A stretch of 64,000 nt of DNA from an uncultured Pseudomonadota bacterium (GTDB lineage Bacteria > Pseudomonadota > Alphaproteobacteria > RF32 > CAG-239), in the NCBI GenBank assembly GCA_902763535.1, contig CACWSG010000004.1:7568-71567 (forward strand), given 5' to 3'. The notes beneath the pieces are model-generated. The model saw only the letters and a program-made list of their open reading frames with translations. It made no database searches and was not told the DNA's origin. The number at the start of each line of letters is the position of its first letter. Position 1 is the first letter of the stretch. Below, in pieces: positions 7,558 through 54,249 of this stretch. The position numbers and the translations under genes are program-made.

Positions 7558-8697
7558 TTATTGTTTAGGGTGCAAATTTACAACGGCAATGTCAGCAGGA
7601 GCCAATAAACGCATATTCGGTCCTAAGGTTCCGGCGCCGCGTGAAACAAACAAATCAATATCGTTAACTTTGTATGTTCCGGCCAAATAATGATTAAGTT
7701 TTTGCACAAACCAGTGAACAGGGAAAAATTGACCGCCATGGGTGCGTCCCGACAACACAATATCAAACAACTCTTTAGATAAAGCATCTACAATTAAAGG
7801 TGAGTGGGATAACAAAACTCTGTAATTTTCTTTTTTTGATTTATAGATGGTGCGCCACAAATTTATTCTTTCGGCCATTGTAGAATAGTCAGGAATTCCG
7901 GCTATAAATATATTGGCAATTTTAATTGTCGCCCCGCCGTTAAACAAAAAGGTTATTCCTCTCTGCTCAAAAGCTTTTTTTGCATCATAAACATTATTAT
8001 AAAATTCATGATCTCCCATTATTGCATAAATGCCATAGGGAGCACTCAACTCGCGCAACTCATCTAACAAACCGTTTATCTTATTTATATTATCTCCGAT
8101 TGTGTCACCGGTAAGTACAATGGCGTCCGGAGATAAGGCGTTTACTTGATCAACAATGCTCTTAACTCTCTCTTTAGAAGTAGTTCTTGATATGTGTAAA
8201 TCACTTACTTGCACAATCTTTACATTGTTTTTTATCTTGTCACTGTAAAAATTTAATTCTTCTACATAAGGCAGTTTATTGGCTTGCCATGCAGCATAAA
8301 AACAAACTACAAAACTCAGGATAATTACCGCAAAATTGGTTTTATTTAATTTATCGCTGTTATTAGGATCCCATTCCCAAGAAGCTTTATCAAACAATTT
8401 TAAGAGTCTGAATAAAATAAACCAAAAAATATCGCGCAGCATCAAGCAAACAAACAAAATAAACACAAATGCCAGCATACAGTAAAAAATTTGATGCAGT
8501 GAAGTATATGTCATGTCGGTGACAAGATCATATTTCCCGACAAAATATAATATTGGAGCTCCAAACCAGCCAATTATAACCAACGCAATCACAGAATTTT
8601 TAATAATTGGGCTGAAATCACTATAACCAACCAAGTTTCTTATGGTTATTATAGAACAAGCAGCTGCTATTATAACAAAAGCCAATATTACAGACAT
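7558..8697 (-). CDS. Membrane-anchored metallophosphoesterase (YaeI/YkuE-like)
   Basis: N-terminal TM helices followed by calcineurin-like motifs VQVSDLHIS, LTGDTI, GDHEF, LLSHSP, GRTHGGQ. Confidence 0.75.
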   Translation of the reverse strand: MSVILAFVIIAAACSIITIRNLVGYSDFSPIIKNSVIALVIIGWFGAPILYFVGKYDLVTDMTYTSLHQIFYCMLAFVFILFVCLMLRDIFWFILFRLLKLFDKASWEWDPNNSDKLNKTNFAVIILSFVVCFYAAWQANKLPYVEELNFYSDKIKNNVKIVQVSDLHISRTTSKERVKSIVDQVNALSPDAIVLTGDTIGDNINKINGLLDELRELSAPYGIYAIMGDHEFYNNVYDAKKAFEQRGITFLFNGGATIKIANIFIAGIPDYSTMAERINLWRTIYKSKKENYRVLLSHSPLIVDALSKELFDIVLSGRTHGGQFFPVHWFVQKLNHYLAGTYKVNDIDLFVSRGAGTLGPNMRLLAPADIAVVNLHPKQ

Positions 8698-8717
8698 AAT
8701 ATCCCTTTACCGTTCAC

Positions 8718-9224
8718 CTATTCGTTAGCAATATTTTCGTTATCTTCTTTTTTTTGTCTTGATTTATAAACGCGGCGAGTTTTAGGCTCGGCCTGCTTTT
8801 CTTCAGTTATCTCAATTACTTTGAAAGATTTTTTAGGTTTTGTTTCAACCAAAGTATTGCCGATATCACTATTTTGGGAAGTTGTATTTTCTTCTTCCGA
8901 TACAGCCTCTGCGACAGAAGCATCATTTATATCGGCAACCGTATTATTATCTATTGAAGGAGTTGTATCTTTGGGCTCAAAACGTTGTTTGCGCTCATTT
9001 ATTTCGGTTACAATTTTGCGATAATGTTCAGCATACTGACGAAAAACCTCAGCTTCCACATAATCTCCGTTGCCATGTGCCTCTTTAGCCAAGTCATTAT
9101 AGCGTTTGATAAGATCCAAAGCTGTGCCGCAGCATTTTCCTGCCGGAGAAACGCTGTCAAATTTGTAATTCAAAGAATATCCCTGATTATTATAGTTATT
9201 ATTGCGAAATTTATTTTTTTTCAT
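8718..9224 (-). CDS. DUF4167-domain protein
   Basis: GTALDLIKRYNDLAKEAHGNGDYVEAEVFRQYAEHYRKI matches the DUF4167 core (..Y..LA.DA...GD...AE...QHAEHY). Position next to prmC is typical of Alphaproteobacteria. Confidence 0.65.
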   Translation of the reverse strand: MKKNKFRNNNYNNQGYSLNYKFDSVSPAGKCCGTALDLIKRYNDLAKEAHGNGDYVEAEVFRQYAEHYRKIVTEINERKQRFEPKDTTPSIDNNTVADINDASVAEAVSEEENTTSQNSDIGNTLVETKPKKSFKVIEITEEKQAEPKTRRVYKSRQKKEDNENIANE

Positions 9225-9351
9225 AAAACACTACCACATAAGGCGCTCTACAATTAGCGCAGTTAAAAACATAAAAACAGAAAATTGCGTGGCACACCCG
9301 CTTAACGCCACATTTTAAGGGCATAATAATCAAAAATTTATTAAAAGCAAA

Positions 9352-10212
9352 TCATTTTTTTAAAATTATACAGCGGTCAATATTGTTTAAATCTTTTAAG
9401 ATTTTTAGGCATTGCATTTTATAGCCTTCTGCCATTTGTTTAATTTGTCTTAGTTGCTGTCCGTCTCCGGCTTCAAGTATAATTATGCCATTTGGCTTTA
9501 ATAACTTTTCGGATACTTGCAAAATTCGATTATAGTCTTTTAAGCCATTTGCTCCTCCGTCTAAGGCAATTAGCGGATCAAAGTCTTTTACTTCTATATC
9601 CAATTTATCAATTTCCGAAGTGGCAATGTATGGAGGATTGCTTACAACCATATCAAAAGGTGCATAATCGCTTAATTTTTCAATTATATCTTCATCAAAC
9701 CAACTGGCTTTAAGCAAATTTAGGCGTTCGGGTTCTATCTTAAGATTTTCCGCATTAAGATCTGTTATTGCCAGTGCGGCATCGGACACATCTATTCCTA
9801 CTCCGGAGACAAAGGGCAAATCGGCCAAAACAGACAAGATAATACAACCTGAACCGACACCAAGTTCTAAAATATTGGCATTTTGAGATGGTGCCAATAA
9901 TTCTATGGCTTTTTCTACCAAAATTTCCGTGTCATATCTTGGTGAAAGAACATCATCAGACACAGCAAAGTCATATTTATAAAATCCTTTTTTGCCGATA
10001 ATTTTATCAATCGGACGATGGTTGCATCTTTCTTTTAGCATATCATCCAAAAGAGCTGCCTGATGTTCAGTTATTTCCATATTGGGGGATATATTTTTGG
10101 GCTCAATTCCTAAAATATGAGCAAGAAGCAATTTTATCTCAAAAACAGACGAATCAATGCCGCTTTCCAGCAGCATTTTCAGTCTGTCGTTTATAAAATC
10201 ATTAATATTCAA
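9352..10212 (-). CDS. prmC: Release-factor glutamine N5-methyltransferase PrmC
   Basis: SAM motif LELGVGSGC and catalytic NPPY (VSNPPYI). 286 aa. Confidence 0.85.
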   Translation of the reverse strand: MNINDFINDRLKMLLESGIDSSVFEIKLLLAHILGIEPKNISPNMEITEHQAALLDDMLKERCNHRPIDKIIGKKGFYKYDFAVSDDVLSPRYDTEILVEKAIELLAPSQNANILELGVGSGCIILSVLADLPFVSGVGIDVSDAALAITDLNAENLKIEPERLNLLKASWFDEDIIEKLSDYAPFDMVVSNPPYIATSEIDKLDIEVKDFDPLIALDGGANGLKDYNRILQVSEKLLKPNGIIILEAGDGQQLRQIKQMAEGYKMQCLKILKDLNNIDRCIILKK

Positions 10213-10224
10213 ATTTTCCTCAAA

Positions 10225-10392
10225 TTAACCATTTTGGTTTTGTGCTTTTTGCAAAGGCTGTTTAGTTGTAGCGCCATTTTTGATTACTGCATTATGAACT
10301 TTATCTTTTAAGTGAGTTATAAAATCTTTAACACCACTCATAGTTCTTTCACTGTCTTGAGGATTTGGCTCTTTATAGTTGTAACTTGTCAT
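10225..10392 (-). CDS. Small hypothetical protein (about 55 aa from ATG 10392; track ORF extends to a TTG at 10413)
   Basis: Only an intergenic ORF between prmC and rpoH. No recognisable motif. Confidence 0.25.
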   Translation of the reverse strand: MTSYNYKEPNPQDSERTMSGVKDFITHLKDKVHNAVIKNGATTKQPLQKAQNQNG

Positions 10393-10437
10393 GACCTTAT
10401 TCCTATCGCTCAAATTTTGTCTATTTATGTCAGTGTA

Positions 10438-11337
10438 TCACTTTTTTACCGATATTGCAAGCAAAACTAATTCTTTTAATTTTTTCATCGCAGCATCTTC
10501 AATTTGACGCACTCTTTCGCGGCTGATGCCAAATTCCTCGCCGACCTCATTCAGTGTTTTCGGGGTGCTTGTCAACAGGCGATTCTTTATGATATATTGC
10601 TCGCGTTCACTGAGTTGAGCCAAACATTTTTTTATAATATCTTTTTTATAAGATGCTTCTTGAGCCAAAGCAATTCTTTCTTCTATATTCTGGCTCTTAT
10701 CGACCAGCAAATCGATTCGCTCTGCCCGCTCATCATCAGAATTAGCAATAGTTGCATTCAATGAAGTATCGCCGCCAAGTCTGCTGTTCATATCCTTGAC
10801 TTCTTGCTCATCAACCACCAATTCATGAGCAATCTGCTTAACTTCTTGAGGCGAAAGTTCCTTGTTTTCATAAATTCCCAAATGCGCTTTCAGTCTTTTA
10901 AGATTATAGAATAGCTTTTTTTGTGCTGCACTGGTACCCATCTTAACCAACGACCAAGACCTTAAAATATAGTCATTGATAGCAGCTTTTATCCACCAAA
11001 TGGCATAAGTTGCCAAGCGCACTTTTTTTGATAAATCAAACTTTTTGACAGCTTGTATCAGCCCAATGTTTGCCTCAGATATAATATCAGCCATGGGCAA
11101 TCCGTAATGGCGATAAGTCATAGCAATCTTGGCAGCCAAGCGCAGGTGTGAGGTTACCAAAGTTTGAGCAGCTTCCATATCGCCCTTTTGTTGTAATTTA
11201 TTTACTAATTCAACTTCCTGTTCTTCGCTCAAAACCGGAAATGTCTTTATTTTATCCAAATAAGCAACTAACGAGTTGTCGTTAATGACAACCGGCAGAT
11301 TGCTTTTTCTTACAACAAGACCATTGTGATCACTCAT
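10438..11337 (-). CDS. rpoH: RNA polymerase sigma-32 factor RpoH
   Basis: Sigma-70 regions 2-4 plus the RpoH box QKKLFYNLKRLK. Confidence 0.9.
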   Translation of the reverse strand: MSDHNGLVVRKSNLPVVINDNSLVAYLDKIKTFPVLSEEQEVELVNKLQQKGDMEAAQTLVTSHLRLAAKIAMTYRHYGLPMADIISEANIGLIQAVKKFDLSKKVRLATYAIWWIKAAINDYILRSWSLVKMGTSAAQKKLFYNLKRLKAHLGIYENKELSPQEVKQIAHELVVDEQEVKDMNSRLGGDTSLNATIANSDDERAERIDLLVDKSQNIEERIALAQEASYKKDIIKKCLAQLSEREQYIIKNRLLTSTPKTLNEVGEEFGISRERVRQIEDAAMKKLKELVLLAISVKK

Positions 11338-11417
11338 AAAACTACTTACGCTCCTTATCGCTGATTAACACAACAGCATATACTTTTTTCATTTTTTTGC
11401 AATATCTAATTTAGATT

Positions 11418-11975
11418 TTATTTTTCGAAAACAAACGACGGGCTTTTATTGTTAAAATTAATTAATTCAACCACTAACTTATCTTCAACATAGTACATAA
11501 TCGTGTAAAAATTTAAATCGACAGCATGATTAGACATTTTGCATATCTTTATATCTTCGTTATTTTTTCGCGAATTTATCTTAATTTCAATCAATCTGTT
11601 GGCTGCCGGTTTGTCATTTTTAGGATTGACTTCCGATGAGTTCAATTCGATAAAATTTTTAATATTTTTCAACAGGATGCGCATTTTTCGTTGATTACGG
11701 ATGGTTTTATCGCTTTCATCCATATAAGGCATCAAATTTGTTCGGAGTTGTTCAAGCAATTTGGAGTCGTTGCAATCCGGCATATTGGCACTTTCGCCCT
11801 TAAGAGAAGCCTTCTCATTTGATTCTATAACCGTAACCAACTCTTTATCGGGATAACCGAAAGCGTTAAGTTCTGCTTCATTTACATCATCTGTGCTATC
11901 CTCTTGTGCCGAAAGCGCAAAAGGATAACACAAAAGTCCCAATATAAAGCTTAATAACAACCCTCTTTTTAGCAT
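11418..11975 (-). CDS. Secreted hypothetical protein
   Basis: Signal peptide MLKRGLLLSFILGLLCYPFALSA. No recognised domain. Confidence 0.5.
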   Translation of the reverse strand: MLKRGLLLSFILGLLCYPFALSAQEDSTDDVNEAELNAFGYPDKELVTVIESNEKASLKGESANMPDCNDSKLLEQLRTNLMPYMDESDKTIRNQRKMRILLKNIKNFIELNSSEVNPKNDKPAANRLIEIKINSRKNNEDIKICKMSNHAVDLNFYTIMYYVEDKLVVELINFNNKSPSFVFEK

Positions 11976-13984: not shown

Positions 13985-14820
13985 GAGAAACCTAAAATTC
14001 TCGGTTGTTTTTTTATATATCCCCCTCGGACACTTTTTTATTGTCATCCTTGGGGACGCGTTTTTTTTATATGTCATCCTTGGGGACGCGTCAGCGTAAC
14101 CCGAGGATCCAAGCAAATTAGATTCAGAATAGATTCTCGGGTCATACACTCAGTGTATCGCCCGAGAATGACTTTTGGACACTTTTGGTCACTCAAAAGT
14201 GTCAATAATATAAAAAAATTCGAAGATGCCTAATTCGCTCATTTCACTCGCTCAGGCATGACAAAAAACTGTCACCCCTGAAGCCCCTCTACTGTCACCC
14301 TCGGACTTGGAGTCGATAGTTGGCGAGAACAAGGCGCTAGCCGCAGTTCAAGGCTTACGAGACGAAAGGGGCCCAGCTTCGTTGGGAATATCCATCCGAG
14401 GGTCAAACAAATTATCTTCGATTCTCGGGTCAAGCCCGAGAATGACATAAAAGAAAATAAGCCCAAGAATGACAGAAGAAAAATATCGCCCGAGAATGAC
14501 TTTTTATATAGGGTTTGGGATTGCGAGACAAGCGGAATAAGCAAACAGCGAAAAGGCTGGCAAAGATTTGCTTTATGCGGCTTTTGTCGGGCGCGTAAGT
14601 CGCCTGTAAATAAGCCGCAGCCTTATGCCTTTGAGCTGTTTGCCCGCTTGGCGAACAGCCCAATGACTTTTGGACACTTTTGGTCACTCAAAAGTGTCAA
14701 TAATATAATAAAATCGGAAGATGCCTAATTCGCTCATTTCACTCGCTCAGGCATGACAAAACCGGTAATGTCACCCCTGAGTGGTTTGCCAAAACCACGA
14801 ATTAGGGGTCTTCGATGTTT
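13985..14820. repeat. Repeat-dense non-coding region made of several hairpin-repeat families
   Basis: gtcatccttggggacgcg appears twice. (c)ccgagaatgac/attctcggg inverted copies appear at least 5 times. A unit of about 115 nt (approx 14167-14281 and 14662-14780) contains gacacttttg-gtcact-caaaagtgtc and atgcct-aattcgctcatttcactcgctc-aggcat hairpins. Confidence 0.85.
14511..14663. mobile_element. MITE-like 153-nt self-complementary element, copy 1
   Basis: Matches 16653-16805 with 2 mismatches, same orientation. Imperfect terminal inverted repeats (ttgggattgcgagacaagcgg / ccgcttggcgaacagcccaa). Nested internal pairings gcaaacagc/gctgtttgc, aaggctg/cagcctt, tgcggctt/aagccgca. Confidence 0.7.
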
Positions 14821-16526
14821 TAGAACAATTTCAACACTGCATTATTGGATTGTGCCGCTAAGGCAAGAGCATTGACTGCTAATGAATTTCTAGTTTGCAA
14901 AGCAAGATAATTTGCTGACTCTTCATTCATATCCGCCAATACCAAATCATCAGCACCAGTCTGTAATACATCAACCAAACCATCAGTGAAATTCATGCGT
15001 GTTTCAATGATACTTAAATTGTTGCCCAACCTTGCAACCTCATCACGAATAGAAATCATTGCATTTTGAATTTCTTTGATGCTTGCGGCAATATCGCCTT
15101 TGGTCTGCCACTCGCGAGTTGTAATGCCCAATCCGCTCAAGCTCATATCTTTGCCGTTAATAGTATAACTATGCGTGCGGTCTTCATTAAACATTGTGGT
15201 CAACTTGCCGCCTTTGAGCAGGTTGACACCTTGATAACTACTGTCTGATATCATCTCATCAAAAGCACTCATCGCCGTCAAATATTGCTCCGCGCTTTGC
15301 GCTAAAACTTTTTCATCAGCTCGCGGTTCGGCAGTCGGATAAACAAATTGCTCATCTTCAGCCATTCTCTGCACATTCAAAAGGCTTTGAATATTTGATG
15401 CTTGTATATTTTGATTTATTAAACTGGCATCTTCCATCACTTCATAACTTCGCCCACCAACCGTAACATGTGCTCCTTTAGCATAATTAATAACAACCAT
15501 ATTGCTTTCATAGGCCCCTCTTATAGCATTACCCAAAACATCAGCCGAAGCAGCTATATTAACAGTTCCACCTTCACAACCCCACCACCCGTTATTAAAC
15601 ATTTTTCCTTCTATATTTAATACACCATTACTGCAACACAAAACCCCAAAACCTTGAGTTTTGCAGGTTAATTTAGCTCCACTTTTTATCATCATATTTG
15701 CATTGTTTCTAATACCGCGGTTTTGGTTGTCTCCCATAGTTTTAAGATTAACATTTCCTTCAATGGATAAATTCCCCAGATTATAAACAGTGTATGACCA
15801 ATTTGAGCGAATTGGATTGTCTTGATTTATTTCTACATTCTTGATAGTCATCGTTCCATTGTTGCGCAAACAACTATTTGCTGATGAATTAGTGGTAGCA
15901 AAATTGATACTCAAATCCGATATCAAATTGTTTGCCGTGGTATTATTAGCTAACATAATAATGTTACGAGTGCAAGAGGCACTTATCGATGAGAATTTAT
16001 CTATCTCGCTGTCAAAATCGCCAAAATATCCGACACCGACCAGTTTTTGGTTATCATTTAAGGTTAAACCGGAAGTTATTTCGCCCATATCGATATGCCC
16101 ATAAACACAAATGGTTTCCTTGTTAGCATTGACCGCATCTTTGAGCTCTTGTGCTGTTGATACAACCGCGCCATTAGGGCCGACTTGAGCTTCAAACCAA
16201 GCCTTTTCCGGTATGATTGCTGCCTCGTATGCTTCTTTGGCAATCACCGCGGCATTTTCCAATATCTCGCCGCTGGCTTCTAAGCCTTTTACCGCCGTGG
16301 TAATAGTCTGGATACTTTGCCCCATGCTATCAAGGAGCATATCAAGGTCGCTTGCTCGGTTGGTCAAAGCTCGGCTTTGATAATAAGAGTTGGCATTATC
16401 AATCGCTGAGTTCACTTTTTTGCCGGTAGAAAGTCGTGTCTGGGTGGTGGACATCTGACTTGCCAACGACTTCAAGGAACTCAAGTTGCTGCGCATACTG
16501 GAGGTCAAAGTTATGTTAACAGACAT
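14820..16526 (-). CDS. Flagellin-family protein with beta-helix-like central insert
   Basis: True start is ATG 16526 (MSVNITLTSSMRSNLSSLKSL..), preceded by AAGGAGGGGG. The track ORF to 16808 is read-through of the repeat. Flagellin N- and C-terminal helices are present (..NFTDGLVDVLQTGADDLVLADMNEESANYLALQTRNSLAVNALALA). The centre has N.G.l.I-type repeats. Confidence 0.8.
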   Translation of the reverse strand: MSVNITLTSSMRSNLSSLKSLASQMSTTQTRLSTGKKVNSAIDNANSYYQSRALTNRASDLDMLLDSMGQSIQTITTAVKGLEASGEILENAAVIAKEAYEAAIIPEKAWFEAQVGPNGAVVSTAQELKDAVNANKETICVYGHIDMGEITSGLTLNDNQKLVGVGYFGDFDSEIDKFSSISASCTRNIIMLANNTTANNLISDLSINFATTNSSANSCLRNNGTMTIKNVEINQDNPIRSNWSYTVYNLGNLSIEGNVNLKTMGDNQNRGIRNNANMMIKSGAKLTCKTQGFGVLCCSNGVLNIEGKMFNNGWWGCEGGTVNIAASADVLGNAIRGAYESNMVVINYAKGAHVTVGGRSYEVMEDASLINQNIQASNIQSLLNVQRMAEDEQFVYPTAEPRADEKVLAQSAEQYLTAMSAFDEMISDSSYQGVNLLKGGKLTTMFNEDRTHSYTINGKDMSLSGLGITTREWQTKGDIAASIKEIQNAMISIRDEVARLGNNLSIIETRMNFTDGLVDVLQTGADDLVLADMNEESANYLALQTRNSLAVNALALAAQSNNAVLKLF

Positions 16527-16652
16527 AACCCCCTCCTTTTTATTATAACTAATTCGTAGACCCCTAATTCGCTCCTTACAGTCGCTCAGGGGTGACAGGT
16601 GGTGAAATAGACCCCTAATCTTGCTCAAGGGGTGACAGTTTAAAGATTCATC

Positions 16653-16805
16653 GGGTTTGGGATTGCGAGACAAGCGGAATAAGCAAACAGCGAAAAGGCT
16701 GGCAAAGATTTGCTTTGTGCGGCTTTTGTCGGGCGCGTAAGTCGCCTGTAAATAAGCCGCAGCCTTATGCCTTTGAGCTGTTTGCCCGCTTGGCGAACAT
16801 CCCAA
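16653..16805. mobile_element. MITE-like 153-nt element, copy 2 (in the 5' leader of the flagellin-like gene)
   Basis: See copy 1. Followed by the 12-bp perfect hairpin gttacttttggg-tg-cccaaaagtaac. Confidence 0.7.
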
Positions 16806-16894
16806 CACTTTTTGGTTACTTTTGGGTGCCCAAAAGTAACATAAACCGCTTGCAATTACATTGATTAACTGATTGATTTTATTAGATATTCCAT

Positions 16895-49582: not shown

Positions 49583-49828
49583 ATGTATATAAAAGAGATA
49601 AAAAGAGCGCCCTACATTTGTATAGTGCCAAGCAGCGGGCCTCATGCCATCAAGTGTTATCCGGATGCTAAGACATGGGTCATAAACGGTCAAAAATTCG
49701 GATATTCCAAAAGAGAACAAACCATGATTGCCCCAATGGCTGTTAGTAAGGCTGAAATAGAAAATGCAAAAAAGTTCTTTGAGGAAATTTCTCTCTCCGA
49801 ATGGAAAGGATTATTTCCCTCTGATTGA
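49583..49828 (+). CDS. Small soluble protein, family A copy 1 (unknown function)
   Basis: 81 aa. Paralogous to 51240-51473 (IKRAPYIC.VP..G..A.KCYPDA.T.VING.KFGYS..EQT.I.P). No SD; A-rich leader. Confidence 0.5.
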   Translation: MYIKEIKRAPYICIVPSSGPHAIKCYPDAKTWVINGQKFGYSKREQTMIAPMAVSKAEIENAKKFFEEISLSEWKGLFPSD

Positions 49829-49905
49829 AAGCAGCAAAAGAGATGTTGGCGATGCTCTAGCTTCTCATTTATGCCAATTAAATGTCTAATTAAAAATAAA
49901 AAATT

Positions 49906-50205
49906 ATGACGGTATTATTGATTACAGGCATTAAGGTGGTCTTAATGGTGATGGCAATAATCCTGACGATTATCGCACTTGTTACCATCATAAGGTATGA
50001 TGATTCAGAGTTTTGCGCTCTTGTTGAAGTTTTGGTGCTGTTGGGTGCAATAGTGCTTTTAGTTTTGAAAATATTCCTTCTGATGGAATGGTTCAATCCG
50101 GAGGCAATATCAGCACTCTTGTATGTGATCAAAGTTATCTGGATCGTGCTGGCAATTATCGCTCTTATCGCTAACGGCGTAAGATTATTAACCATTTACT
50201 ATTAA
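49906..50205 (+). CDS. Small 3-TM membrane protein, family B copy 1
   Basis: 99 aa with three hydrophobic spans. Leader taaaaataaaaaattATG. Confidence 0.5.
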   Translation: MTVLLITGIKVVLMVMAIILTIIALVTIIRYDDSEFCALVEVLVLLGAIVLLVLKIFLLMEWFNPEAISALLYVIKVIWIVLAIIALIANGVRLLTIYY

Positions 50206-50224
50206 CCAATAAAAACAAAATATT

Positions 50225-50485
50225 ATGTTTGCAACCGTTTTTACAATCTTACTGGCTGCTATTATAGCAACTTGTGTCGTCGGCATCTGCATTATAGCCA
50301 AGGCAATTAAAGAATTGGGTGCAGGTGTGTTTTCCATTAGCGGCATAATAGCATTACTACTTGTTGTCGCCATTACAGCCTTAGGTATATGTCTATTACA
50401 AGGCTGGGGTGATGCTCGCATCATTGAGCAGTGGATGGCAGGTTTGGGAATTGCCGCCATTGTCATCGGTTTTGCTATTGCCTAA
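50225..50485 (+). CDS. Small 3-TM membrane protein, family B copy 2
   Basis: 86 aa with three hydrophobic spans. Leader aataaaaacaaaatattATG. Confidence 0.5.
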   Translation: MFATVFTILLAAIIATCVVGICIIAKAIKELGAGVFSISGIIALLLVVAITALGICLLQGWGDARIIEQWMAGLGIAAIVIGFAIA

Positions 50486-50534
50486 ATTGTGGGAATAGGA
50501 ATAATACTGATGATAAAAAACAAATAATCAATTT

Positions 50535-50559
50535 GCTCGCTTGAAAAAGCGAGCTTTTT
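50535..50559 (+). terminator. Intrinsic terminator inside the small-gene cluster
   Basis: gctcgctt-gaaa-aagcgagc followed by ttttt. Confidence 0.65.
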
Positions 50560-50642
50560 GTCGTTTAAAAACATTGACAAAAAACAAAAAAACTAATAAC
50601 TTGAGAACAATTCACATTATTTATAAATTAAATTTTAACAAT

Positions 50643-50921
50643 ATGGAAAAAGTAGTTGTAACTATTGTTTTCGCAGTGGTCATCACTGTCATTGCCGCAG
50701 TTTTCGTATTTTTATGGAGACTGATGGAAAATCACAAAGATTTTTCTGTTCTGTCAGGCTTAGCACTTCTGGAGCTGGTGCTCGGTTTCGCCTTTCTGTC
50801 CTATTGGGGATTGGCTTGGGCGACAACCGCGCTGAAAATTGTAACAGTTGTGTTGTATGCAGTGATTCTATTTCCGGCGGTGTTTCGCTGGTGCAAACGA
50901 CCGAAAGAAAGTAATGTTTAA
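50643..50921 (+). CDS. Small 3-TM membrane protein, family B copy 3
   Basis: Start MEKVVVTIVF at 50643. The track ORF from 50541 spans the terminator and is unlikely. 92 aa. Confidence 0.45.
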   Translation: MEKVVVTIVFAVVITVIAAVFVFLWRLMENHKDFSVLSGLALLELVLGFAFLSYWGLAWATTALKIVTVVLYAVILFPAVFRWCKRPKESNV

Positions 50922-50936
50922 CTAAAAACAAAAATT

Positions 50937-51227
50937 ATGAATGCTTTAATTATTATCGGGGCGATAGTTATCATCGCTTTCTTTATTTGGTGCATTTGCA
51001 CCCTCGCTCCATTCTACAAAGATGAGGGCTGGAACTTCTTCAATGTCGGCACAATTGCCAGCTTTGTGATGCTGATAGCCATTGTTATATTGACAGCGGC
51101 TTATTTCATCGGCTGTTGGCAATGGCTGACTCCAAATGTTATGTCGACAGTTTTTCTGTGTGCGTTGGTTTGGTTGGGTGTATACCTCGTAGCCATCGCC
51201 TTTAGTATGCGAGATAAAAAACAATAA
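50937..51227 (+). CDS. Small 3-TM membrane protein, family B copy 4
   Basis: 96 aa with three hydrophobic spans. Leader taactaaaaacaaaaattATG. Confidence 0.5.
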   Translation: MNALIIIGAIVIIAFFIWCICTLAPFYKDEGWNFFNVGTIASFVMLIAIVILTAAYFIGCWQWLTPNVMSTVFLCALVWLGVYLVAIAFSMRDKKQ

Positions 51228-51239
51228 AAAATAAAAATT

Positions 51240-51473
51240 ATGGTTATCATCAATGAAATAAAGCGGGCGCCCTACATCTGCACGGTTCCCGGCGGTGGTG
51301 TCAGAGCAACCAAATGTTATCCGGATGCGCAAACTTATGTCATAAATGGCAAAAAGTTTGGGTATTCTCAAAAAGAGCAAACTCTGATAACACCAATTGA
51401 TGCATCGGGAAGCGACATAAGTGCCGCTGAAGTTGCAATAAAGGCGATAAAAAATTTGAGCCTCTCAAGTTAA
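51240..51473 (+). CDS. Small soluble protein, family A copy 2
   Basis: 77 aa, paralogue of 49583-49828. Leader aataaaaaataaaaattATG. Confidence 0.5.
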   Translation: MVIINEIKRAPYICTVPGGGVRATKCYPDAQTYVINGKKFGYSQKEQTLITPIDASGSDISAAEVAIKAIKNLSLSS

Positions 51474-51546
51474 AAAAAGTATTAGTAGTTTTCTTGATAC
51501 TTTTTGGGGTGTCATTTTTTAAAATCGGTAAAGAGTAACTCCTCTC

Positions 51547-51577
51547 AGCTCGCTTGTTAAAAGCGAGCTTTTTTTTA
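51547..51577 (+). terminator. Intrinsic terminator ending the small-gene cluster
   Basis: agctcgctt-gttaa-aagcgagct followed by T8. The stem sequence is the same as in the 50535 terminator. Confidence 0.65.
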
Positions 51578-51588
51578 TTAAAATAACA

Positions 51589-51607
51589 TTGAAAATTTCA
51601 AAGCTCT
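51589..51607. repeat. 19-nt direct repeat, left copy (ttgaaaatttcaaagctct)
   Basis: Exact match to 53321-53339. Brackets the two-gene effector module. Confidence 0.9.
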
Positions 51608-51672
51608 CGGGGTTAAATATAAACAAGAACTCTTAACTCTTATTTATGAAATGTTACAATTTGTGATTGTTA

Positions 51673-52308
51673 CTAAAATTCCGATAAACCGACGCAGTTG
51701 TGATAATCGCTATCAGCATTTTCAAAATTACGCCAAGTTTCATAACCATAATAAGTAAAGCAACGTGCTTTATTTTCCTCTTTTTTGCAAGCCATGCTAT
51801 ATTCACCGATTGCTTTTTTCACTTCCCCATCATACCAATACATTTTGCAGTGACATTCATCACAATATTTTAAATTAAAACGCAAAGTTTTTTGTTTATC
51901 GTCTAAACAGTAGTTTACAACATAATTCCCATTACCAGTACTATGAAATACCACCTCTTCTCCTAACCCCACATGACAAGTTACTTCTGTATAATCATTA
52001 TTATGTTGTTCACAAAAAAAATTTAAGTCTTCTTTTCTTCCTGTATTTTTTTCCATGATTGTTCCCATACATCCAGCATTACCGCAATTCGCAAATGATG
52101 TCGGAAATTTGGAAGAACCTGAAAGGTTAATATTTAAACTATATCCTTTTGTATCTCCTTTATAAGCATATTCAAAAACACCATCATTATCGCTGATTGT
52201 TTCGTATTTTTCAACCTTCAGAGCAAAACACGGCCAATCTTGCGGTAAAGCATAAGCTCTGCCGCAAGAAAGGACCATAAACAACATTAAAATAATTTTA
52301 TTTTTCAA
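51673..52308 (-). CDS. Cys-rich secreted protein (candidate immunity/partner protein)
   Basis: TTG start at 52308 preceded by TAAGGGA. Signal peptide MKNKIILMLFMVLSCGRAYA. More than 12 Cys. Overlaps the upstream gene by 11 nt. Confidence 0.55.
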   Translation of the reverse strand: MKNKIILMLFMVLSCGRAYALPQDWPCFALKVEKYETISDNDGVFEYAYKGDTKGYSLNINLSGSSKFPTSFANCGNAGCMGTIMEKNTGRKEDLNFFCEQHNNDYTEVTCHVGLGEEVVFHSTGNGNYVVNYCLDDKQKTLRFNLKYCDECHCKMYWYDGEVKKAIGEYSMACKKEENKARCFTYYGYETWRNFENADSDYHNCVGLSEF

Positions 52309-53290
52309 ATTCCCTTAACCTTGTTTCAATCCATAAAAATTTCGTTTTCAAGTCTGGATCATTTATTTTACCATAATCCATATAATACATACCATTTTTA
52401 TCCTTTTCAATATGCTTGAAAAATTTATTCATATAATCAATTCCTGTTCTGTGAATTGCTGCTAATAATCCGGTATCTGTTATGGTAAAATTAAATTTTA
52501 ATCCTTTATATTTGGAACCTACATATTTTGTTTCTCCAAAGTGAGACAAATATCTATATTGAACTTTCATATATTCGTCTAATATTTGTTCCTGTATAGA
52601 TGGATTATTTAAAAAATCTTCAACAGAATATATACCATTTTTTCCGGTCCATTTATTGTCTTTTGTTAAATATCCTGTATCAATTAGTCCATCTCTGCGT
52701 ATCTGGTACATTCCTAAAGCACCAATTCCCCCACCTGAAGTATTAGTTTTATTATAATTGTTCTTACTTTCCTTATATCCTAATAAGTTACGCATTTTCT
52801 TTGAAAAAATGTAATGTTCATCTTTATGATTTTTATTTCGTATTTCCGATTCATTATTTTTAGCATATTGGGGCAAGCCGGATAAATCAACTTTCGTCAC
52901 ATCAGATTGTTTTACTCTATCCGATTGATATGGCTCTGCCCAGCAACGACAATTATAATCTTCACCGGGATTTCCGCCTTCAGGCGGAATATATTTGTTA
53001 AATATTTTCCCCTCACGTTCAGCGTGTGCGCCGCGAACTTTATCATCTCCTTTCGTGCGCCAAATATAATAATTTTCCGGATTTTCTTTTATATCATAAG
53101 CCAATATCTCTTTGAGTTTCGGATTGGGCGTATTTTCACTTTCAACATCTATTTGTTGCATATCCGAAACGGTTTCGGCATCTCTTGGATCAAGATAATA
53201 CCAATCTGTTTCTCCTTTTCTCTTAGAATCACGTCTAATCGGCTTAAATCCATTCATTCTTTGATATAAATCATTATATAATTCGTTCAT
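52298..53290 (-). CDS. MuF-domain (Phage_Mu_F/SPP1 gp7-like) protein fused to a lysozyme-like/lytic-transglycosylase-like C-terminal domain
   Basis: IWRTKGDDKVRGAHAEREGKIF....PGEDYNCRCWAEPY matches the MuF core (W.T..D.rVR..H..l.G......P....nCRC). The C-terminus has KES-(18 aa)-GALGMYQI, resembling the SLT E-S...GA.GLMQ motif. Preferred start is MNELYN at 53290 after GGAAAGGA; the track start is 53308. Confidence 0.6.
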   Translation of the reverse strand: MNELYNDLYQRMNGFKPIRRDSKRKGETDWYYLDPRDAETVSDMQQIDVESENTPNPKLKEILAYDIKENPENYYIWRTKGDDKVRGAHAEREGKIFNKYIPPEGGNPGEDYNCRCWAEPYQSDRVKQSDVTKVDLSGLPQYAKNNESEIRNKNHKDEHYIFSKKMRNLLGYKESKNNYNKTNTSGGGIGALGMYQIRRDGLIDTGYLTKDNKWTGKNGIYSVEDFLNNPSIQEQILDEYMKVQYRYLSHFGETKYVGSKYKGLKFNFTITDTGLLAAIHRTGIDYMNKFFKHIEKDKNGMYYMDYGKINDPDLKTKFLWIETRLREFEK

Positions 53291-53320
53291 TTTTACTGTC
53301 CTTTCCATAAAAAAAGAGCT

Positions 53321-53339
53321 TTGAAAATTTCAAAGCTCT
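53321..53339. repeat. 19-nt direct repeat, right copy, embedded in a perfect 12-bp-arm palindrome
   Basis: agagctttgaaa-a-tttcaaagctct (53315-53339) flanked by an A7 run. The right arm plus centre equals the left-copy repeat. Confidence 0.9.
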
Positions 53340-53580
53340 TTGGATTAAAAAATATGGCGGAAAAACGGGTACAAAAAAATCCCGCCATTTTTTATGACAG
53401 GATTTTCACCCACTCATCCACCATACTGATTTTTATATCATCAGCCGACGGCTTAAGTCAAGGTGCTGACCTCTATTATCCACAAAAAGTTGATGTTTGT
53501 AACATTATTCGCTTTTTTGCTATGAAAAATAAAATTTCCTTAAAATAAAATCATTTATCGTATAAGTTGTAACCAATAAC

Positions 53581-54249
53581 TTAAGAATTTAAGTCATCAT
53601 TGGGTTTATATTGCGTTTTGTAACCATGATTTTCTTTCGGGCGCAAATCGTTAGGATACATTGTATCAGCAAAAATATCGGTTTGCAATTTTTTTACCAG
53701 CTGGTAAACTTGTGCATAATCGGCAATATCGCAGATAGTGGTGCCGCGATATAAGTTATGTCGGGAATTATAGCCATCGTGATTGCTTGTCATTACCACA
53801 TCACCCACCCCAAGCATCTGATCAAAAATTCCTCGATGCAGGTTGACATTTGACATCTCACTAAAAGGCTTGCGCTCCAAATTTTGAGTAAATATTCCTC
53901 CTGAAGTATATACTCCCTGATCGGTAACAATAAAACTGGTATGTTTATAGCGCAAAAATGAAAATATTACTCCCGCCAGATAAATCCATACCGGCATTAA
54001 ATGCAAAGCAAAAAATCCGCCCATTATAAGCCCCATGGGTGCTGTTACTTGATTCGTTTGCATATTTCCGCTCATTGCCGCATACATAAACCCGCAATCA
54101 ATTGCACCCCAAATAAGAGCAATCGGCAACAGCGGATTAAAAATAGATTCCAAAATAAAACATCTTTTATTCGGTCGGCCTTGCCAAAGAATGTTTTCTC
54201 CCTCACTTACCAAGCTTAAAAGTTCATAAAGAGCCGGATGGTTTGACAT
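53581..54249 (-). CDS. Membrane bPH_2 (YdbS/YdbT-like, DUF304) domain protein
   Basis: ILWQGRPN, two TMs, then FIVTDQGVYTSGGIF...NVNLHRGIFDQMLGVGDVVM, typical of bacterial PH domains. Confidence 0.65.
   Translation of the reverse strand: MSNHPALYELLSLVSEGENILWQGRPNKRCFILESIFNPLLPIALIWGAIDCGFMYAAMSGNMQTNQVTAPMGLIMGGFFALHLMPVWIYLAGVIFSFLRYKHTSFIVTDQGVYTSGGIFTQNLERKPFSEMSNVNLHRGIFDQMLGVGDVVMTSNHDGYNSRHNLYRGTTICDIADYAQVYQLVKKLQTDIFADTMYPNDLRPKENHGYKTQYKPNDDLNS

Follow-up and report, generated by a model that had tools for sequence, protein, structure and literature searches.

Toxins that carry a MuF domain at the N-terminus are the closest described counterparts of the locus analysed here. Those published so far are prophage-encoded and come mostly from Firmicutes, with payloads named as nucleases, peptidases, ADP-ribosyltransferases, deaminases and alarmone synthetases (PMC5576092, PMC3482391, PMC11699363), and Jamet et al. 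(2017, PMC5576092) place ~96% of muf genes in prophages or what is left of them. Their delivery route and biological role were left unresolved (PMC5576092, PMC11699363). Against this comparison set (Zhang et al., 2012, PMC3482391; Jamet et al., 2017, PMC5576092; and the toxins Apk2 and Bxa, PMC11699363), we analysed a two-gene cassette within 64 kb of DNA from an uncultured rumen/gut alphaproteobacterium (the whole stretch is hereafter called the window, and coordinates follow its numbering unless another locus is named). One gene encodes an effector with a MuF-type N-module and a lysozyme-like C-module, the other a cysteine-rich partner protein, and together they probably form an effector/immunity cassette belonging to a small polymorphic family of rumen and gut Alphaproteobacteria.

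As in the published MuF toxins, a MuF-type N-terminus is joined here to swapped C-terminal toxic domains with small cognate genes adjacent, and phage-borne relatives sit in a head-gene block (loci L185, L041 and L043; L numbers denote the fetched loci). However, most relatives that share this C-module, and the window copy itself, lie outside prophages, the hosts are Alphaproteobacteria rather than mostly Firmicutes, and the MuF resemblance is confined to a core of ~50 residues inside a module of ~143 aa. Moreover, all recognisable C-modules here are, as judged from their sequences, periplasm-acting wall glycosidases whose partners bear signal peptides, and there are arrays of orphan modules, the word “orphan” being absent from Jamet et al. 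(PMC5576092). The locus departs from the published MuF toxins in prophage location, which is one of their defining features, and also in the class of its payload and the compartment where immunity would act. Our literature search returned no paper that ties MuF to pesticin, or to peptidoglycan hydrolases whose immunity is periplasmic.

The cassette comprises the following parts:

52298..53290, minus strand: effector gene, 330 aa (open reading frame, with the start fixed by alignment of homologs)
51673..52308, minus strand: partner gene, 211 aa, TTG start (open reading frame, signal-peptide prediction, structure model)
52862..53290, minus strand: N-module of the effector, aa 1-143, 55-65% identical to paralogs with other C-modules
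52940..53083, minus strand: MuF core within the N-module, aa 70-117 (PF04233, phrog_324, Foldseek)
52301..52834, minus strand: C-module of the effector, lysozyme/lytic-transglycosylase-like, unmatched by Pfam (PHROG, Foldseek, tblastn)

The two genes overlap by 11 nt (52298-52308), and AAGGGA lies directly upstream of the partner's TTG, a start codon kept in four other versions of the gene (L003, L004, L011, L022). The effector begins at the ATG at 53290, because all homologs align from residue 7 of the longer open reading frame (52298..53308, minus strand), whose 336-aa start at 53308 was rejected. An earlier note, made from the letters of this DNA, had described a 330-aa effector and an 11-nt overlap with a gene that has its own Shine-Dalgarno sequence and TTG start, all of which agrees with the reading frames and the homolog alignment. 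The motifs that it quoted (VRGAHAEREGKIF, PGEDYNCRCWAEPY, GALGMYQI and AAIHRTG) are all found in the effector, the gap between KES and GALGMYQI being 14 aa rather than the 18 aa given there; its count of more than 12 cysteines in the partner also holds (13, with 12 after the signal peptide).

The effector consists of the MuF-type N-module, a disordered linker and the C-module, with no signal peptide. Modelled with AlphaFold2 from 31 sequences, it has a mean predicted local distance difference test score (pLDDT) of 83 and forms two domains parted by a low-confidence segment (aa 144-159). The MuF core is the sole part of the N-module that resembles ordinary phage MuF/SPP1 gp7 proteins. It scores 30.5 bits with PF04233 (cut-off 29.6), over profile positions 62-110 of 112 only, and 35.3 bits with TIGR01641, under that model's cut-off of 39.65. 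PHROG 324 (head morphogenesis) matches the effector at 1e-19, the N-module paralogs score up to E 5.8e-12 for MuF, and a Foldseek search against viral models aligns ~70 columns of the N-domain to phage minor capsid and head morphogenesis proteins. The MuF-type N-terminus proposed from the letters is thus supported by PF04233 (just above its cut-off), PHROG 324 and the viral structure models.

The whole N-module is rare: 18 of 1.84 billion representative sequences match it at E<=1e-30, vs. 5,642 for the generic MuF core at E<=1e-3. It ends in the stretch NCRCWAEPY...VDLSGLPQYA, and the form NCRCWAEPY...VD(L/V)SGL is a recombination junction. Pfam, NCBIfam and PHROGs recognise no receptor-binding or translocation domain in the N-part, with the limit that a TonB box is too short for exclusion by sequence. 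Three proteins in the alignment of relatives (P0016, P0017 and P0042) have the first ~60 residues of the N-module and the C-module with the MuF core absent, and keep the motif G..P.RR..GQSEWYYLDPRG..IDVESENSPNP. Because these proteins retain the first part without the core, the N-module may be made of two sub-modules, the first of which might be the real targeting signal.

The C-module carries an invariant E174-S175 pair (encoded at 52766-52771) followed by G-x-A-x-G-x-YQ-x-R and AAxHxxG motifs, of which the E, S, Y, Q and H are invariant across the 31 sequences. PHROG 27932 (“baseplate hub and tail lysozyme”) matches effector residues 170-258 at 2.9e-10, and Foldseek against viral models returns gp5/baseplate-hub tail lysozymes, SLT and LT_GEWL proteins (E 1.7e-5 to 6e-4), including the tail lysozyme of Agrobacterium phage Atu_ph04. 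A tblastn search against cultured phages matches residues 164-306. The best match (37% identity, 1e-19) is to part of Pseudoalteromonas phage pYD6-A, a phage that we take to be N4-like, where the annotation reads “virion RNA polymerase”; tail lysozymes of T4-like rhizobiophages also match (33-34% identity, ~1e-6). Searches of PDB sequences with the effector and with a C-module profile gave nothing useful. Since it has neither a Pfam family nor a PDB sequence match, the C-module represents an unclassified lysozyme-like family. The lysozyme/lytic-transglycosylase-like C-terminus suggested earlier is therefore borne out by PHROG 27932, the viral models, tblastn and the E-S motif, and we infer from sequence and model that this domain cleaves peptidoglycan.

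The partner begins with a predicted signal peptide (aa 1-20, 52249-52308), with the cut placed at AYA|LPQDWPC. Its 25 homologs in 5.8 billion clusters all have a signal peptide whose AxA site is conserved, and beyond that site they share LPQDWPC and the 12 cysteines. The predicted structure is all-beta (pLDDT 86.9, predicted template modelling score 0.74), and neither Pfam nor PDB gives a match; PADLOC reports no defence family. A lipoprotein was considered and rejected, as the residue before the conserved Cys15 is often Phe, unlike a lipobox, and the AxA site is conserved, so that cleavage by signal peptidase I is the preferred prediction. A likeness to the immunity protein Tsi1 was set aside and given no weight, the template modelling score (TM) of ~0.2 being too weak. 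Given the signal peptide and the strict genomic linkage described below, which uphold the immunity-type role first proposed for it, the partner is most likely the cognate periplasmic inhibitor of this C-module.

A protein search returned 309 homologs of the effector, few of them full-length, many sharing the N-module only (at 55-65% identity) and others the C-module only. Among 69 N-module paralogs with other C-parts, every C-domain that Pfam recognises is a glycan hydrolase: Pesticin in 8, VgrG3-like_C in 7, GH108 in 6 (three of which also have PG_binding_3), Phage_lysozyme in 3 and GH46 in 1. Single-linkage clustering of the C-terminal parts lumped unrelated modules through their shared linker, and hidden Markov model (HMM) scans of the fetched loci were used instead. 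In these scans, the cysteine-rich partner directly follows each of 8 distinct complete C-modules (the window, L003/L023, L004, L022, L060, L100, L101 and L102/103) and is absent after ~35 N-module genes with other C-modules. A second signal-peptide family of 158 aa (type: L185 11000-11476, minus strand) is encoded, in convergent orientation, behind N-module effectors of pesticin/T4L-like type at 18 or more loci, including tandem triplets in L046 and L048 (both 9137-10789), and is, by its genomic position, probably a second immunity family. A lone copy of the 158-aa protein stands beside the cysteine-rich partner in L003/L023.

Behind the main gene of L004, L029, L031, L050, L054, L061 and L063 stand truncated orphan modules, whose starting point (N-module position ~105-109) is the NCRCWAEPY junction. 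A scan of genomes with the N-module alignment (one genome per species) confined the close family to rumen and gut metagenome-assembled genomes (MAGs) labelled “Alphaproteobacteria bacterium” or uncultured Rhodospirillales, with 2-3 loci in single MAGs and many contigs broken inside the N-module. Between species, the N-module has a ratio of non-synonymous to synonymous changes (dN/dS) of 0.11-0.21, the C-module one of 0.07-0.12 and the partner one of 0.18-0.21, which indicates that all three are under purifying selection. In the nearest species (L021), a 362-bp deletion has removed the catalytic part of the C-module and left the partner gene intact; such keeping of immunity is typical of toxin/immunity systems. 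Taken together, module swapping, strict linkage, orphans, the L021 deletion and the dN/dS values are the hallmarks of a polymorphic toxin/immunity system. Further, as the effector has no export signal and the putative inhibitor is exported, the inhibitor would be useful only if the enzyme comes from outside or is set free at lysis.

Two of the loci where the C-module has a non-MuF N-terminus have further genes alongside. Upstream of the pair in L100 (4755-5984), genes for a soluble protein of 150 aa and for two small, multi-pass membrane proteins run in the same direction, and may be another toxin/immunity set in a small island. L102/L103 (1-7253) has a C-module with an N-terminus of only ~45 aa, then a frameshifted partner gene, and this pair ends a prophage lysis/tail region with a holin, Phage_lysozyme, a BppU_N baseplate protein and an 817-aa protein.

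In IMG/VR, the whole N-module occurs in a single contig, L185, from a rumen sample. There (9983-11476 region), a 343-aa protein combining the N-module with a pesticin/T4L-like domain is encoded directly after the large terminase gene, between the portal and major head protein genes, which is the canonical place of MuF. The same phage type is found as a prophage in the MAG loci L041 and L043. This position in a phage head block implies that the family began as, or still exchanges with, a phage head protein bearing a wall hydrolase. In L041 the effector gene (7977-9368) follows the major head protein rather than the terminase as in L185, so that movement of the cassette inside phage genomes occurs as well. 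Short MuF-core proteins (250-330 aa) that stand alone were also seen in Rhodobacterales and Rickettsiales (L062, L066, L068, L078, L086, L090, L095), including the cultured Aliiroseovarius zhejiangensis KCTC 42443 and Rhodobacteraceae bacterium KLH11; Sulfitobacter and Ruegeria are further cultured carriers. They have a different C-part (W..NDFV.HYY.G.GRGVT..E.GHL) and a downstream reading frame for a membrane-anchored protein of ~165 aa, and their genes are placed among housekeeping genes or transposases. From these occurrences, stand-alone MuF cassettes seem widespread in Alphaproteobacteria and amenable to work with cultures.

The surroundings of the window copy are of another kind. No portal, terminase, capsid or other phage gene, and no gene transfer agent (GTA) or secretion-system gene, was found in the whole 64 kb, which extends the stand-alone location first remarked for the immediate neighbourhood. 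The rest of the window is housekeeping (RlmN, flagellins, ClpB, a sigma factor, a tRNA synthetase, Suf, SecDF, Tat, SodC, FadL and Aas), with a G+C of 0.36-0.45 vs. 0.29-0.33 in the cassette. The cassette is limited to its two reading frames and has no integrase or transposase of its own and no lysis or release gene. It recurs in unrelated chromosomal contexts (L003, L004, L021, L100 and L101), and in L003, L004, L100 and L101 no phage genes are present, as in the window.

Between two lineages of the window species, the coding block is 99.6-100% identical, while the leader and 3' spacer are ~85% and the bPH_2 side 88% identical (non-coding stretches 51474-51672 and 53291-53520 of the window compared with L011, L017 and L019). 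Near-identity of the coding block next to non-coding stretches at ~85% suggests its recent exchange, and such comparisons indicate that the cassette moves between genomes as a unit. The p96 and p77 genes are likewise 99.5-100% identical between the lineages (window vs. L011, L017 and L019), which gives a mosaic pattern of identity. No empty site was found among same-species contigs, every one of which has the cassette at the same place, nor in a metagenome scan with the flanking bPH_2 protein, which returned 80 loci with non-syntenic homologs in unrelated organisms and no other flanking gene in any. That bPH_2 membrane protein (53581-54249) has homologs 51-75% identical on contigs of G+C 0.28-0.49 with no common neighbours; it seems to have spread widely by transfer and is of no use for anchoring synteny. 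In L003 (9766-10130), the cassette lies just downstream of a tRNA-like gene, identified by eye, whose 3' end and terminator are duplicated 245 nt further on (9837-9882 and 10082-10126), which looks like att-type repeats from an integrative element.

The window copy is flanked by direct repeats, the right one lying in a structured leader:

51580..51617, plus strand: left copy of the direct repeat, within the partner gene's 3' untranslated region, 19-mer core exact at 51589-51607
53312..53349, plus strand: right copy of the direct repeat, 38 nt, exact 19-mer core 53321-53339
53313..53341, minus strand: terminator-like hairpin of 13 pairs followed by a T-run, holding the right 19-mer
53352..53426, minus strand: large, very stable leader hairpin followed by a U-run, which travels with the cassette

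Over 38 nt the two copies are 84% identical, and a reverse copy of the 19-mer with one mismatch (53315-53333) makes the right one a palindrome with 12-bp arms (13 pairs including flanking bases). Both exact 19-mers and the palindrome are as first reported; 0.11 matches are expected by chance, vs. three observed, and none of the shuffles gave 3. The right 19-mer forms the 5' arm and loop of the terminator-like hairpin (free energy -17 kcal/mol, z-score -4.2), which stands between the larger hairpin and the ribosome-binding site of the effector. The left copy has one hairpin arm and the loop only, and does not fold. As a whole, the leader (53295-53440, minus strand) folds at -57.9 kcal/mol (z-score -8.0) and is conserved in L021 despite a different genomic context, homology reaching window position 53513. 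In the second strain lineage, hairpin substitutions keep the pairing as G.U on the minus-strand RNA, and the same T-to-C change occurs in both repeat copies. Rfam gave nothing above the gathering score for the leader and the 3' region, sub-threshold matches being terminator noise. A sigma-70-like promoter that inspection by eye suggested for the leader (TTGACT-18-TATAAA) did not come up in the scan and is not relied on.

Flanking repeats at other loci are of different kinds: 76 nt at 87% identity with a hairpin and T-run in L021, and ~185 nt made of the upstream region and the first ~64 nt of the effector gene in L004. Such differences in sequence and length argue against a fixed target-site duplication, and an origin by recombination or duplication involving the cassette's own upstream region is favoured. 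Of the inserted cassette suggested in the earlier note, mobility as a unit thus stands, given the unrelated contexts, and the 19-mer is no more than a putative insertion footprint, its right copy being part of a terminator-like hairpin.

How would such an enzyme reach the periplasm of another cell? In the explanation that we favour, the N-module, derived from a MuF-type phage head protein, would be a handle for packing the enzyme into the capsids of phages or of phage-like particles (of prophage or GTA type). Ejection would then take it to the periplasm of the recipient, where the wall would be cut, and cells producing the partner would be protected. New effector/immunity pairs would arise by recombination at the NCRCWAEPY...VD(L/V)SGL junction. 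Capsid loading followed by delivery on ejection is the most likely route because of the origin of the N-module and its place in phage L185, and we put it forward tentatively. We infer enzyme activity, inhibition, capsid loading and delivery alike. It is also possible, if somewhat doubtful, that chromosomal cassettes arm phage or GTA-like particles in trans, the short MuF handle loading interchangeable wall-cutting enzymes into capsids encoded elsewhere in the genome; such particles would bring the enzymes to the periplasm of neighbours, of which only kin with the matching periplasmic inhibitor would survive.

Several observations weigh against this explanation. Of the MuF profile, the N-module covers just the final ~50 residues and the Pfam cut-off is barely passed, and a capsid-loading role for so short a module is an assumption. 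The 64 kb also hold neither phage nor GTA nor secretion genes. The pair of C-module and partner also occurs without a MuF part (L100, L101 and L102/103), from which it follows that MuF is dispensable for its use. As to the enzyme, no Foldseek match in PDB passes E 1e-3, despite top fold matches to MltD, MltF and i-type lysozymes (probability ~0.9), and no Pfam family covers the C-module, SLT included, which one of 15 members reaches at 0.049; among the checks proposed with the first description, PF04233 and a lysozyme-like fold were found and an SLT match was not. The best structural match of the partner, Tsi1 (an immunity protein from type VI secretion systems, T6SS), has a TM of only ~0.2. 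Lastly, the only space that could hold a promoter is separated from the effector gene by the terminator-like hairpin, so that expression of the effector must, on this reading of the leader, depend on read-through.

Read-through of the leader would suit late control of phage type, and this is one of several points in favour of a phage-versus-phage device, in which the MuF-lysozyme is a capsid-internal ejection protein opening the wall for DNA entry, the periplasmic partner a superinfection-exclusion factor against the corresponding enzyme of related phages that try to enter, and the chromosomal cassettes leftovers or reservoirs that recombine with phages. The same architecture is found in a phage head-gene block with a signal-peptide gene adjacent, only the inhibitor is kept in L021, and the C-module is of the type of virion wall hydrolases, being 33-37% identical to virion peptidoglycan hydrolases (a set in which we count T4 gp5-type tail lysozymes of rhizobiophages, T7 gp16 and N4-like virion proteins). 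Like these, the enzyme would also act during ejection, if it is loaded into capsids. However, virion hydrolases are structural parts of one phage, without cognate inhibitors, and are not polymorphic chromosomal cassettes. The stand-alone effector genes, by comparison, lie at a distance from any phage genes and, in several species, have stayed intact under purifying selection, and orphan arrays with several loci per genome look like arsenals more than relics. Most steps are common to this device and to capsid delivery of a toxin, which makes the two hard to tell apart by sequence alone; we consider the device unlikely.

A bacteriocin of pesticin type appears more unlikely still. Here the effector would be released by lysis or leakage, its N-module would bind a receptor and carry it across the outer membrane, the muramidase would then kill from within the periplasm, and the partner would protect as Pim does against pesticin. 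Eight N-module paralogs do have the Pfam Pesticin domain, and the layout fits: a cytoplasmic producer protein without a signal peptide, a C-terminal muramidase, a conserved modular N-part with swapped killing domains, and periplasmic immunity, as in pesticin/Pim and lysozyme-like bacteriocins. The C-module/partner pair with non-MuF N-termini agrees with it as well. Yet the N-part has its homologs among phage head proteins of MuF type, and one phage carries it in the MuF place; no receptor-binding or other uptake domain and no TonB-box-like element was recognised in it, the cassette has no lysis or release gene, and it is chromosomal, not plasmid-borne.

Periplasmic immunity to wall-degrading effectors is the T6SS pattern, and cargo of a T6SS-like or other contractile or secretion system, with the N-module as adaptor, can be envisaged on these grounds. 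The T6SS pairs Tse1-Tsi1, Tse3-Tsi3 and VgrG3-TsiV3 likewise join a wall-degrading effector without a signal peptide to an adjacent gene for a periplasmic inhibitor, VgrG3-like (7 paralogs) and lysozyme-like domains occur among the N-module paralogs, and Tsi1 is the top Foldseek match of the partner. However, the N-module is phage-head derived, the partner belongs to an unrelated cysteine-rich family whose Tsi1 match stays at TM ~0.2, and the VgrG3-like domain is simply another lysozyme-like fold. No T6SS genes, and no PAAR, MIX, DUF4123-type or other adaptor or targeting domains, were found in the window or the inspected loci, and we regard this origin as very improbable. Finally, an inert prophage remnant (a decaying head-morphogenesis gene and a lipoprotein-like neighbour with no joint function, the 19-mer being due to chance or a terminator) is hardly credible, for although most muf genes do lie in prophages or remnants (~96%; PMC5576092), the G+C is low and the right repeat is a terminator-like hairpin, both genes are intact, overlapping and under purifying selection across species, six or more unrelated contexts keep the pair, its partner being strictly tied to the C-module, and the chance expectation for the repeat is 0.11.

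The characterised MuF toxins act in the cytoplasm, and their immunity genes are uninformative on whether the toxin leaves its producer. A wall-hydrolase payload with an exported partner, by contrast, makes sense only if the enzyme gets into a periplasm from without, or when cells lyse. If arming in trans is true, this mismatch of compartments would, for the first time, argue at sequence level for an action of MuF toxins from outside their producer, and the question of MuF delivery would reduce to a read-out of periplasmic killing and rescue. This family further shows that MuF-tagged effectors can leave the prophage and behave as classical polymorphic toxin loci, with orphans, several loci per genome and exchange of coding blocks. 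Three protein families unmatched by Pfam are involved (the C-module, the cysteine-rich partner and the 158-aa partner of the pesticin-like modules), both partner families being candidates for new inhibitors of lysozyme. Among the hosts, uncultured Alphaproteobacteria of the rumen and gut, competition is little known.

Elsewhere in the window, an 81-aa gene (49583-49828) and a 77-aa gene (51240-51473) are paralogs adjoining the cassette (~71% nucleotide identity), with the common motif KRAPYIC.VP...KCYPDA..VINGKKFGYS. Between them are four small, very hydrophobic open reading frames (49906-50205, 50225-50485, 50541-50921 and 50937-51227), and this set of small genes (49583-51473) has a weak TcaA match only and otherwise no family. 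Farther away, two long flagellin-like genes (1243-2811 and 14820-16808) are recognised only over the N-terminal flagellin region, and one of the two also has an Lcl C-terminal domain.

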